This document shows positions 3,299 to 46,416 of a stretch of DNA of 64,000 nucleotides, piece after piece. This stretch comes from Escherichia coli. GTDB taxonomy: Bacteria; Pseudomonadota; Gammaproteobacteria; Enterobacterales; Enterobacteriaceae. The notes below the pieces were generated by a model, which worked only from the letters and a program-made list of their open reading frames with translations, did not search any database and was not told the origin of the DNA. The position numbers were made by a program, and so were the translations under genes. Every line of letters starts with the position of its first letter. Position 1 is the first letter of the stretch. Location: the NCBI RefSeq assembly GCF_050920415.1, contig NZ_CP169309.1, one strand, 5' to 3'.

Positions 3299-3697
3299 TG
3301 TAGTGATTTTGCACGCAGCACGTACTGTCAGAGAAATCACTGCTCTGACAGTACGCAAGATCATCTCATACTCTCCAGGTTTACAACATTATCCTTAATA
3401 TTTACTTCTTTTTGCTGACATCTACATTGAAATAAGTAGAAAACATCCCCCTCCTATCGTCCTTACAGACAGCTTACTGATTCAAAGGGAACTTTGTTTT
3501 CACATTTTTCTATCATCATTACTTTAGACGCGCGGGGTCTATAAATGCTTTGTACTTTCAGGGAATAAAGTAAATATAAAAAGATGGCATAAAGTTTATG
3601 CATGGCAGGATGTTTGCAACCTCCTTGAGGACGCTGTCCCATTGAAATTGCAAACCCCGCACTGGTTATCTGCCCATTTATCATGTAAAACAGACAA

Positions 3698-12233: not shown

Positions 12234-12464
12234 ATGTTTACGAAGGCGTTATCGGTTGTCTTATTAACGTGTGCGCTGTTCTCAGGACAACTCATGGCAG
12301 GGCACAAAGGACATGAATTTATGTGGGTAAAGAATGTGGATCATCAGCTGCGTCATGAAGCGGACAGCGATGAATTGCGTGCTGTGGCGGAAGAGTCGGC
12401 GGAAGGTTTGCGCGAGCATTTTTACTGGCAAAAATCGCGCAAACCAGAAGCGGGACAACGTTGA
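12234..12464 (+). CDS. yncJ: Small protein YncJ (DUF2554), 76 aa, signal peptide
   Basis: ORF 12234..12464 (+), ATG start, MFTKALSVVLLTCALFSGQLMAGHKGHEF... Confidence 0.85.
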   Translation: MFTKALSVVLLTCALFSGQLMAGHKGHEFMWVKNVDHQLRHEADSDELRAVAEESAEGLREHFYWQKSRKPEAGQR

Positions 12465-15130: not shown

Positions 15131-15221
15131 GTGACTCCTCCGGCAAAGCGGAAGTTTATCACTTGTGCGTTATAACGGACAAATGCTACGGTACCTGTAC
15201 GCTATAACGCACGAGGTGACC

Positions 15222-16394: not shown

Positions 16395-16395
16395 T

Positions 16396-16425
16396 AAAAA
16401 GCGCCATCTTACGATGGCGCGACTG
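16396..16425 (-). terminator. Hairpin terminator in the 34-bp ydcO/ydcL convergent gap, U-run on the minus strand
   Basis: gcgccatc-ttac-gatggcgc stem-loop at 16401-16420, flanked by A-run on + strand (T-run on - strand). Confidence 0.55.
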
Positions 16426-16428
16426 GAA

Positions 16429-17097
16429 TTACTTTTTGTTAACGTCAAACATGGTGGCATCGGTCGCCATGTCATCAATAACTTGCTTAATATTCTCGAA
16501 AGCCATTGGCGTACTTTCATTATTCAGGTCTTTACCTTCGCCCTGACGAACGACTTTGATAACCGGTTTATTAGTAGCTGCATCAATTAGCTCACCTTCA
16601 AAATACAGGCGAGTATCCATGGTACGGTGGCCCGTCGCCATTTGCGTCCCCGCGACCACTAATGCGACAGGAACCACTTCATAGAATTGCAGCCCTTCTT
16701 TGCTGGTATCTACACCGGTAATGGCCCCACGGAAAATCAGACTACGCGGCCCAGCGGTGGTAACCAGTGGTTTACGCTGCGCAATCGCTTCTTTCATTTC
16801 GGTGTTGGTATAACTCAAAATTTTATCCAGAACTTTCTGCCCTACCTGGGTAGATGGTTTCGGTACCGGATAATAAGTGACTGGGTTCCAGACGATGCTG
16901 TCATATTTGCTTTGATCAAAACTCGGGTCTACCCAACGTAAAACAGGCTTACCCGTTGCAGAAGTTGTTTCTTTTAAATCAGAGTAATTGTTTAAAAAGC
17001 CAGAATATTTATCTGGCTGGGTGATTTTAGAGGCACAACCAGACAGAGCCAACAAGCCGCATAAAGCTGCAACTTTCGCAAATGATGTGGTACGCAT
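16429..17097 (-). CDS. ydcL: Lipoprotein YdcL (DUF3313)
   Basis: ORF 16429..17097 (-), 222 aa; lipobox MRTTSFAKVAALCGLLALSGCASK. Confidence 0.9.
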   Translation of the reverse strand: MRTTSFAKVAALCGLLALSGCASKITQPDKYSGFLNNYSDLKETTSATGKPVLRWVDPSFDQSKYDSIVWNPVTYYPVPKPSTQVGQKVLDKILSYTNTEMKEAIAQRKPLVTTAGPRSLIFRGAITGVDTSKEGLQFYEVVPVALVVAGTQMATGHRTMDTRLYFEGELIDAATNKPVIKVVRQGEGKDLNNESTPMAFENIKQVIDDMATDATMFDVNKK

Positions 17098-17398
17098 GAA
17101 TAGTTTCCTGAGATGATTATATTACTTTTTAAGTTATAGCAAAAAGCACCGCTTCGTGTTGTGGCAAAAAAAGTGTTGGTAAAAATAAATTTATCAGCCC
17201 CTTTTCAGACGACATAGTCAATGCCGAAAAAGGGGCTAAGTCAATCATCAGTAGTTAAATATCAGTGCGTTAAGCTGATGAAAAACTTCGACTACCGTGA
17301 TTAATTTCACATCCTTTTGATTAAAAATATGCTTACCGAAAAGAACAACGGTTAACCATCTCAACGCGGGGCATTTTCACGCGCCTTGTTCTACCGGG

Positions 17399-17992
17399 TC
17401 ATTTTTTACGTGCCAGTATCGTGGCGAAACGCAGTTTAATCCGATTACCGTTGGCATCGGTGCGGTGCAACTCACCGACGTTTTCATTGTATTTCACCAT
17501 CTCCCAGCCTTCGTAATATCGACGTAATTCTCCCTCTTTGAAGGCAAACGGGAAGCCGACGGTACATGGATAATCAGCGGTATCCATCGCCGCCACAATC
17601 AGGTTGTAACCACCAGGTTTAGTGCAACGTTGCATATTGGCAATCAGCCCTGGGATGGTTTTAGCCTCAAGGAACATCAGCACCACAGTCGAAAGAATAA
17701 AATCGTATTGCCCATCAAAGGTGAGGTTATTCAGATCAACGACCCGGGTATGTAAATTATCCAGATTTTCAATGGATTTAATGCGCTCGACGTTGGCGAT
17801 ACTCATGGCATTTTTATCCCATGCGTCAACTTCATAACCATTGGCTGCCAGGTAAAGACTGTTACGACCATTGCCACAGCCCAGATCCAGCGTTTTACCG
17901 GGTTTAACCACTTTCACCGCTTCCAGTACTTCAGAGTGTGTGCGGGTTAATTCATATTTTTCAGTAAAATAGTTTTCGTCACGGATGATCAT
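17399..17992 (-). CDS. tehB: Tellurite resistance SAM-dependent methyltransferase TehB
   Basis: ORF 17399..17992 (-), 197 aa; SAM motif [15 protein letters not shown]. Confidence 0.95.
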
Positions 17993-18981
17993 TCTTTGTC
18001 CTCAACTTTCATTAAAACAGCGCGCTCTGTTCTGATTAACAATTTCCCCTGCATCAGAAGCGCGAAAGTTCGGATGAGCAGTATTGCAATTATAAAATTG
18101 GTAAAGATAAACAGCGGCACCGCCAGCGTATGGAAAAATCCATTATCGCTGCCACTCCCCAAATGCAAACCGGTGGTTGCCAGTGCAGATACGCCGAACG
18201 AGAAACTCCAGAATGAAGCATTAAATGGCTGGGAGAGATACCATGGCATCAGACGTAGCATAAACAGCAGTTGCAGCAGCCCATAACCGAAAAGCATTTT
18301 CGCCAGCGTGTCACCCTCGCCGCCGTTGACGCTCAGCCAGGCACTACAGGCCACCAGCGCAGGAGCGAGCTGAATGCCGAGTGATGTCCGCAGCGCCGTG
18401 GGTAATTCTCCCGAACTGCGCAGACGCTGCAAGATCACCGGTTCCAGGCTTAACCATGAGAAAACGCCTGCGCCTAAAAACACCAGACCGGCGTCGGTGT
18501 AGCCCAATGCACCACAGGCCATTGCGCTGATAAAGTTGTTGGCAACTGTCGGCAGATACAGTCCAGGCGTGGTAGCTTCTTCAGGATGAGATCCGCGCCA
18601 TAATCCCGCAGTTTGCCAGGCGGCATAAGCCAACTGAACCACGACACCAAAACTGAACAGGCATACCGCCAGTGGGCGAAACCACGGAACAAAACCAATC
18701 GCTACCAGCATCGTCGTTGCAGGAAACAAACTCACAAAACTGCTCATCACTGGATGGCGCACTTCCGCCAGCACGCTATTCGGAAAGCGTATGAGTCGGG
18801 TAATAAATGCGCTAGTCAATAATCCCCAGATGATCATCGCCAGAATTACCAGCCCATCTCCTAACCAGTGGCTGACCTGCCAAACCTGGCTGGCATAGCG
18901 CCAGGCAAATCCCATCCCTATCGTCCCCAACACAATACCAAAGTAGCCTGCCGGCAAATTGAGCACTTTATCGCTCTGCAT
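17989..18981 (-). CDS. tehA: Tellurite resistance / dicarboxylate-type membrane transporter TehA
   Basis: ORF 17989..19089 (-); TehA-like sequence from internal Met [19 protein letters not shown]... (330 aa); 4-nt overlap with tehB. Confidence 0.92.
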
Positions 18982-19104
18982 CTTCTTACTCATTTTGTTT
19001 AATTTATAAAGTATATTTGAAATACATTTTATGGAATTTTCTCGAGCATAGCCAGACTCGCAGAATTTGCTACGGTTATAGTAAGTCACCTGTGGGAAAA
19101 CGCT

Positions 19105-20085: not shown

Positions 20086-20616
20086 ATCGATAATACGCGC
20101 GTATAAGTTCACATCATCATAGGCATCATTCAGGAACTCAGCCTGTTTCAGGCAACCTTCAAGGATAAAACCATTGCGCAAAGCGACCTGGTTGCTTTGC
20201 GCATTGTCCACCCGACATTTGATCACGAAGCGTCTAAGTTCACCAGACTGAGCGTAATGATGAATCAATGCCTGCAGCGCCTGAGAAATGATCCCCTGCC
20301 CCTGATGAGATTCGTCCAGCCAGTAGCCGATTTCAGCGGTTTTATTCAGTGGTTCAATACGATTAAACGAGATAACGCCGATAAGTTCATCTTCTTTGAA
20401 AATCATGAACATTTTGGCATAGCCGCGTTGATGCAACATTACATTGCCCTGCACCGTTTTTCGCGTGTCCTCTTCACTTTGAACAAACTGCGGCCAGTTT
20501 AGCGACTGCTGTAACCAGGTTCTATTTTTACAGATTAACTGATAAAGAGGTGTGACATGACTTTCTGCAACAGCATGTAATTCAAGTGATTCACTTACTT
20601 TTATCGTTTCAGCCAT
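20077..20616 (-). CDS. rimL: Ribosomal protein L7/L12 N-acetyltransferase RimL (GNAT)
   Basis: ORF 20077..20631 (-); RimL from internal Met [16 protein letters not shown]...; 3' end overlaps ydcK 3' end by 9 nt. Confidence 0.9.
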
Positions 20617-30986: not shown

Positions 30987-31181
30987 GGGCGACTCCTGTG
31001 ATTTATATGTTTGTTTTTGGTAAATGTATTGTTAATTAACATCAATCATCATAGAGACGGCATCGTGAAAGGACAATTCTGTGAAGGGCTTCATAAAAAG
31101 AAGGGTAAAAGGAATAAAAGGCAGAAAAAAAAGTAAGGAGTCATGCCCGTTTGCAAACAGTTGTTCTCAAACGGGCAATTT

Positions 31182-31982: not shown

Positions 31983-32395
31983 GGTTCCTCCTTATCGTTC
32001 CCTTAAGAATACTGCGTGAGATAATAATGAGAAGCGGAGCACTCTGAAAGGAAGATGATGCTTTTTCTATCGCGCCATCGCGAACCAGACACTGGTTTTA
32101 GTCATACTGTATTTGCGGAGAAACTGTTGATAAAACATCAATAACATAATGTTCTATCATTTTTAAATGACAGATAATCTGGTGTGATATTTATATAATA
32201 TTCATTCTTATATTTCTCAATCAAGGGAACATTTGGTATCCAGTGTATCATCCTCATCAACCAGATGTGTTATAAGCACTTTACCTCGTTAATTTTAATA
32301 TTACGAGTTACAGGACAAAACATCACTCGCATTTAGTCCAGTAACTCGTAGTAGCCAGAGTATACATACCCATTGATAAAATGCCTGGCAATAAA

Positions 32396-38174: not shown

Positions 38175-38227
38175 CCGGACACTATTTTGATGTGGACTGT
38201 AGATATTCAGTCCACATCTCAATCCAC

Positions 38228-45285: not shown

Positions 45286-45348
45286 ATGCACTCCATGCCA
45301 TTAAAAAAGAAACAAAAGGGAAATGCATCTTTCCCTTTTGTATATTCG

Positions 45349-46362: not shown

Positions 46363-46394
46363 ATAAAAAACCGCAACCTGTATCAGCGTTGCGG
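46363..46394 (-). terminator. Rho-independent terminator of ydbA
   Basis: ccgcaac...gttgcgg hairpin followed by T-run on the minus strand. Confidence 0.55.
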
Positions 46395-46416
46395 TTTATG
46401 CATCACATACTAAAAA

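Follow-up and report, generated by a model that had tools for sequence, protein, structure and literature searches.

The spacer between tehB and ydcL

Does the inverted repeat that lies between tehB and ydcL of Escherichia coli end the tehAB transcript, or does it serve another purpose, for example as a site for a DNA-binding protein? The first-pass annotation of this locus described a 10-bp inverted repeat downstream of tehB and took it for the probable tehAB terminator, with the reservation that a large loop is atypical and could point to a protein-binding site. We examined the repeat in its genomic context, a stretch of 64 000 nucleotides of E. coli DNA (hereafter the window), and compared it with other enterobacterial genomes and with published maps of RNA ends. 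The features discussed are collected in table 1.

The spacer is unannotated in a RefSeq genome whose tehB-ydcL spacer is 100% identical to that of the window and in which the flanking genes are annotated as they are here. In K-12 MG1655, the spacer (1502156-1502456) is likewise 301 bp long and unannotated. On the other side of ydcL, this gene and ydcO converge and are about 34 bp apart (16395-16428); the element IS609 (insQ) is absent between them in the window, unlike in K-12 MG1655.

Table 1. Features of the tehB-ydcL region and other inverted repeats of the window.
Feature	Position	Strand	Remarks
tehA	17989-19089	minus	ORFs
tehB	17399-17992	minus	ORFs and RefSeq annotation of spacer-identical genome
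ydcL	16429-17097	minus	ORFs and RefSeq annotation of spacer-identical genome
tehB-ydcL spacer	17098-17398		301 bp
tehB-proximal part of 3' UTR	17270-17396	minus	fast-evolving, dispensable
full tehB-sense RNA hairpin	17194-17239	minus	RNAfold
repeat arm AAAAGGGGCT	17228-17237	plus-strand reading	5' arm of minus-strand RNA hairpin
inner stem CGGCAU/AUGUCG (one G-U pair) and UGACU loop	17210-17226	minus	RNAfold
repeat arm AGCCCCTTTT	17196-17205	plus-strand reading	3' arm of minus-strand RNA hairpin
A/U-rich tail UAAAUUUAUUUUUACCAA	17176-17193	minus	sequence and folding
window equivalent of K-12 terminus region	17186-17195	minus	coordinate mapping
conserved ydcL promoter-like block	17133-17167	minus	TTGCCACAAC at 17167-17158 and TTGCTATAAC at 17142-17133
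other inverted repeats, part 1	3321-3355, 12405-12445, 15165-15212, 20175-20203, 31144-31177, 32302-32350
other inverted repeats, part 2	38189-38218, 45312-45341, 46368-46397, 50870-50903, 61579-61602

A perfect inverted repeat downstream of tehB

Both a repeat search and a pattern search recovered a perfect 10-bp inverted repeat in the spacer, with 22 nt between its arms. The existence of the repeat is confirmed by these searches, and its earlier coordinates (arms at 17199-17208 and 17233-17242, loop of about 24 nt) have to be shifted by 3-5 nt. The exact pattern has a single match in the window and was found in none of 100 shuffled sequences. The window as a whole has more such perfect repeats than expected: with arms of 10 bp or longer and gaps of 3-30 nt, there are 12 of them, against 1.6 under a first-order Markov model. 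The eleven further ones, about seven times the random expectation by themselves, are presumably terminators and similar elements.

Structure of the hairpin and of its tail

In the tehB-sense RNA (minus strand), the repeat is part of a longer hairpin of 19 bp, composed of a 13-bp outer stem, a 3-nt bulge, a 6-bp inner stem and the 5-nt loop UGACU. The outer stem continues the perfect arms with U-A, U-G and U-G pairs, and a GCCCC/GGGGC clamp closes the hairpin at its base. The 22 nt between the arms, which had been taken for a large atypical loop, form six more pairs on the sense RNA and leave only five nucleotides unpaired, so that the ground for suspecting a protein site is removed.

The sense strand folds with -25.2 kcal/mol (z = -6.5), and none of 200 shuffled sequences folds as well; the antisense (plus) strand reaches -16.7 kcal/mol (z = -3.8). 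The sense-strand structure is the same in contexts of 56, 81 and 136 nt and in a fold of the complete 301 nt. A stable G+C-rich stem-loop on the transcribed strand is what is expected of an intrinsic terminator, and the position also agrees: the hairpin is on the same strand as tehB, starts 160 nt past its stop codon and precedes the promoter-like motif of ydcL (see below). A consensus terminator scan did not call the hairpin, nor did it find any other terminator-like site on the sense strand from the tehB stop to ydcL.

The tail is less typical. The T-rich stretch that had been noticed after the stem on the minus strand is present (GATAAATTTATTTTTACC), but no uninterrupted T-run adjoins the stem. 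The sequence that follows the stem, UAAAUUUAUUUUUACC, consists of A and U only for 13 nt but forms no continuous U-tract beside the stem, and the tail UAAAUUUAUUUUU falls short of the approximately five or more U residues that an intrinsic terminator has within the first 8 nt. These 8 nt read UAAAUUUA in the window and AAAAUUUA in K-12. The corresponding TransTermHP-style tail scores are -2.88 (borderline) for the window and -1.90 (failing) for K-12, the usual cut-off being -2.5.

An RNA 3' end maps to the base of the hairpin in K-12

The K-12 hairpin is identical to that of the window and spans 1502315-1502360, with no insertions or deletions relative to the window in this stretch. A sense-strand (+) RNA 3' terminus is listed in three tables at 1502359-1502368 of K-12 by Bar et al. 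(2023; PMC10687069, Supplementary Data 2 and 3), both in two sheets compiled from earlier data sets and in the authors' own matched RNAtag-seq/Term-seq tables, obtained from exponential-phase cultures in LB and in minimal medium. The terminus coincides with the end of the hairpin at 1502360 and does not map elsewhere, as a transcript end of tehAB at this site would predict. The same hairpin is printed in these tables as the structure upstream of the terminus, with -25.4 kcal/mol, and the '1 minus read-through' statistic is 0.81-0.94 (PMC10687069). The proposal of a probable tehAB terminator is supported by this mapped end and by the identity of the two hairpins, with the qualification that the tail is not a canonical U-tract.

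The peaks of the terminus, at 1502361, 1502363 and 1502365 (PMC10687069), correspond to positions 17193, 17191 and 17189 of the window. The mapped ends are therefore located 1-5 nt past the stem, in the A-run that precedes the U-rich stretch. Canonical terminators in the same table, those of opgD and ydcL, have tails of 7-8 nt (PMC10687069). RNA 3' ends are thus found at the site in vivo, as is expected of an intrinsic terminator, in data from K-12 rather than from the strain of the window; 3' ends that abut a stable hairpin without a U-tract are also what a block to exonucleases leaves behind.

In the published table, the terminus is classified as "5' UTR, ydcL" (PMC10687069). The 3' end is 92-96 nt from the ydcL ATG versus about 206-210 nt from the tehB stop, and since the methods of that study assign the class by a distance rule, the label is most simply a by-product of this rule, positional and not biological. 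This 3' end has already been catalogued in print, under a wrong label, and is missing from the genome annotation. No 3' end at the site appears in the Term-seq tables of Adams et al. (2021), whether looked up by gene name or by coordinate, and the SMRT-Cappable-seq, TERMITe and Cappable-seq data sets have no entry for it. A literature search with the hairpin sequence itself found nothing, and one that combined tehB with ProQ, Hfq or RIL-seq found nothing relevant.

Conservation in Escherichia and related genera

In 5400 of the 5411 matching E. coli genomes, identity is 95-99% in the ydcL-proximal half of the spacer, hairpin included. The tehB-proximal half has diverged so much from the window's version that megablast matched it in only 115 of 5426 E. 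coli genomes. In Escherichia sp. MOD1-EC7003 (L003; 2325-2345), the 127 nt equivalent to 17270-17396 are missing, and the hairpin and everything downstream of it are kept. This segment is by far the fastest-evolving part of the spacer, and the spacers of other genera are only about 150-180 nt long; it may have arisen by an insertion long ago, or be 3' UTR under no constraint.

The GCCCCUUUU/AAAAGGGGC clamp has been retained across seven Escherichia lineages; 92% of its alignment cells are paired. The inner stem is as in the window in E. coli proper and is differently re-paired in other Escherichia species. One-sided substitutions within Escherichia lead to G-U wobbles on the sense RNA, and 90% of the cells are paired in the sense orientation versus 80% in the antisense orientation. 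Covariation among the seven Escherichia sequences is not significant: the one compensatory pair observed was reached by 211 of 500 shuffles.

The comparison was extended to a set of 82 ydcL loci of Enterobacteriaceae. Among these, the sequence of the hairpin is confined to Escherichia. In most genera, however, a hairpin of some kind ends about 95-106 nt before the ydcL ATG, whichever gene is located upstream. With a gene other than tehB in that place, such as the 532-aa ORF of Enterobacter, the hairpins are canonical terminators with good U-tails; with tehB there (Citrobacter, Salmonella and Kluyvera), they are strong hairpins with poor tails, like that of the window. The hairpin of Citrobacter and Salmonella has compensatory changes in 8 of its 9 pairs. 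The recurrence of a hairpin at the same place in such varied genera indicates selection for the presence of a hairpin here, with replacement of its actual sequence over time.

In Citrobacter and Salmonella (L008-L027, approx. 2370-2415), the hairpin after tehB has a U-rich loop, GCAUUUUUUGUGC. Its 5' arm can instead pair with the last codons of tehB (UGCUGGCGCG...), and the U-run would then come directly after this alternative stem. The two structures are mutually exclusive and reminiscent of an attenuator.

A promoter-like block upstream of ydcL

Downstream of the hairpin, the spacer contains a block similar to an extended -10 promoter that has C at -13; its part TTGCTATAAC includes the extended -10-like sequence TGCTATAAC. 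The block is shared across genera of Enterobacteriaceae (L003-L082) in the form TTGYCACAAC-N15-TTGCTATAAC, approximately -45 to -70 from the ydcL ATG. TTGCTATAAC is found with at most one mismatch in 60 of the 82 loci, and the offset from TTGYCACAAC to TTGCTATAAC is fixed at 25 nt in 47 of the 50 loci scored. TTGYCA and TATAAC are separated by 23 nt, more than a -35/-10 pair allows, and on this basis the upstream motif TTGYCACAAC may be an activator site.

A SELEX peak of the sigma-S holoenzyme is reported in the tehB/ydcL spacer (PMC5493296), and ydcL is reported to be downregulated in a rob mutant (PMC7537768). The ydcL promoter downstream of the hairpin is probably sigma-S-dependent. That ydcL has a promoter of its own past the hairpin argues against a location of the hairpin in the ydcL leader.

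Other elements considered in the spacer

Several other identities were considered for the hairpin and its surroundings. Like the REP/BIME elements, it is an intergenic imperfect palindrome 3' of a gene and able to protect an mRNA 3' end. It is nevertheless single-copy (5417 places in 5411 records, median of one per genome), and the REP consensus was not seen. An Rfam search at permissive thresholds gave no family that reached its threshold; the best score, 17.9 bits, was to a Tetrahymena C/D snoRNA model with a threshold of 70. A C/D snoRNA or k-turn (17192-17259, minus strand), suggested by two motifs, UGAUGA (5' flank) and CUGA (3' end of the stem), was discarded, as CUGA is not conserved in Escherichia; the hit was judged coincidental.

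A 39-aa ORF overlaps the hairpin (17129-17248, minus strand). It was rejected as a gene: its ATG is changed to ACG in one relative (L005) and to ATA in another (L007), both loci carry indels, and the changes observed alter amino acids. A promoter in or beside the hairpin was considered because of the two occurrences of TTGACT; no usable -10 was seen by eye at 16-19 nt and none was called by the scan.

For Shigella flexneri 2a 301, a small RNA named 'Ssr15' has been predicted in the same spacer, encoded opposite to tehB (PMC4782007). The prediction is purely computational, and Ssr15 is not among the RT-PCR-validated candidates of that study (PMC4782007). A promoter-like site is present on the plus strand of the window at 17306-17333.

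Alternative explanations

Because the tail is not a canonical U-tract, the word terminator is ambiguous here, and may mean either a weak intrinsic terminator or a hairpin that stops exonucleases. If the hairpin were only a stabiliser of the 3' end, termination would take place further downstream, by Rho or after transcription into or through ydcL, and the transcripts would be trimmed back by PNPase- or RNase II-like activity. Trimming alone is favoured by the weak tail score, by the negative consensus scan and by the position of the ends, which stop only 1-5 nt after the stem and short of the U-rich run; the hairpins that follow tehB in Citrobacter, Salmonella and Kluyvera are likewise without U-tracts, and Dar and Sorek (2018; PMC6061677) document the trimming mechanism in E. 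coli. Intrinsic release is favoured, on the other hand, by the A/U-only hybrid after the stem, which is compatible with weak release, by the low read-through, with few read starts just downstream of the terminus (PMC10687069), and by the lack of any tehB/ydcL entry in the Rho-region tables of Adams et al. (2021), although low expression could explain this absence. We regard a purely stabilizing role as possible but on balance doubtful, and on the preferred reading release at the hairpin would be intrinsic rather than factor-dependent.

It is unlikely that the hairpin acts as a premature terminator or attenuator within an extended ydcL leader, or that it terminates a small RNA born in the spacer. 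The published class label (PMC10687069) would agree with such a role, and conservation extends as one block from just 5' of the hairpin to the ydcL ATG. Between the tehB end of the spacer and the hairpin, however, our scan found no promoter-like site on the sense strand, and the promoter-like motif shared across genera is downstream of the hairpin; in addition, the genera with another upstream gene carry the terminator of that gene at the same place. RNAs that end at the hairpin would be expected to start at the tehAB promoter.

We also considered that a regulator of ydcL or tehAB may bind the repeat as a palindrome in the DNA, the RNA fold being incidental. Its arms are perfect 10-mers, the motif ATTGACT is present twice (in the 5' flank and in the loop), with both copies conserved in Escherichia, and ydcL responds to the deletion of rob (PMC7537768). 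A gap of 22 bp between half-sites would nevertheless be unusual for a dimeric regulator, and no marbox-like match was seen by eye. The substitutions in Escherichia preserve G-U pairs of the RNA and not the symmetry of the DNA, in other genera the sequence is wholly replaced, yet a hairpin persists and shows compensatory changes, and the base of the structure is where an RNA 3' end has been mapped. We found no support for the protein-binding site offered initially as the alternative, and consider it very improbable. A functionless chance repeat (about 1.6 are expected per 64 kb anyway) is effectively refuted by the mapped RNA end, and only about 0.008 such repeats are expected in a spacer of 301 bp, the pairing extends beyond the arms, and the structure is kept in 5400 genomes and across Escherichia species.

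The tehAB transcript and its probable 3' end

The repeat is best read as an ordinary end-of-operon hairpin that ends the tehAB transcripts without a clean U-tract. More precisely, we estimate with a probability of about 0.55 that the hairpin and the A/U stretch after it constitute a non-canonical, weak intrinsic terminator, the tail of which is subsequently trimmed. RNA polymerase would read about 160 nt of 3' UTR beyond the tehB stop and then transcribe the GC-clamped, bulged hairpin of 19 bp. The transcript would be released within AAAUUU(A)UUUU, at 5-10 nt from the stem, and its tail would afterwards be shortened to 1-5 nt by 3' exonucleases. The expected outcome is stable ends of the tehAB mRNA and little read-through to the separate ydcL promoter, about 30 nt further on.

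The hairpin shares with the intrinsic terminators of Enterobacteriaceae a G+C-rich base on the sense strand, its location past the last gene of an operon, the A/U-rich sequence after the stem and the RNA 3' end at the base. It differs from them in the absence of a contiguous U-tract, in its long and bulged stem, in its distance from the tehB stop and in the tails of 1-5 nt instead of 7-9 nt. The exonuclease-trimmed stem-loops of Rho-terminated transcripts are similar in that the hairpin has no U-tract and the RNA ends a few nucleotides past the stem; unlike these, the tehB hairpin is at a locus without a catalogued Rho region (in one data set), and its A/U-rich flank would permit weak intrinsic release.

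A regulatory role would be compatible with three observations: the U-tract is missing from the hairpins after tehB in four genera, the ATTGACT flank and the loop are strictly conserved in Escherichia, and the site adjoins a promoter of the sigma-S type. The hairpin might accordingly be a selectively maintained terminator without a U-tract, or a site for an RNA-binding protein, that tunes the flow of tehAB transcription into ydcL, or it might yield a stable functional RNA derived from the 3' UTR. We consider a role of this kind improbable.

With the hairpin as the end of its transcript, the tehAB operon gains a defined 3' end and a 3' UTR of about 205 nt. The site adds one more E. coli 3' end at a strong hairpin without a proper U-tract, and it is a useful test case for terminator predictors.
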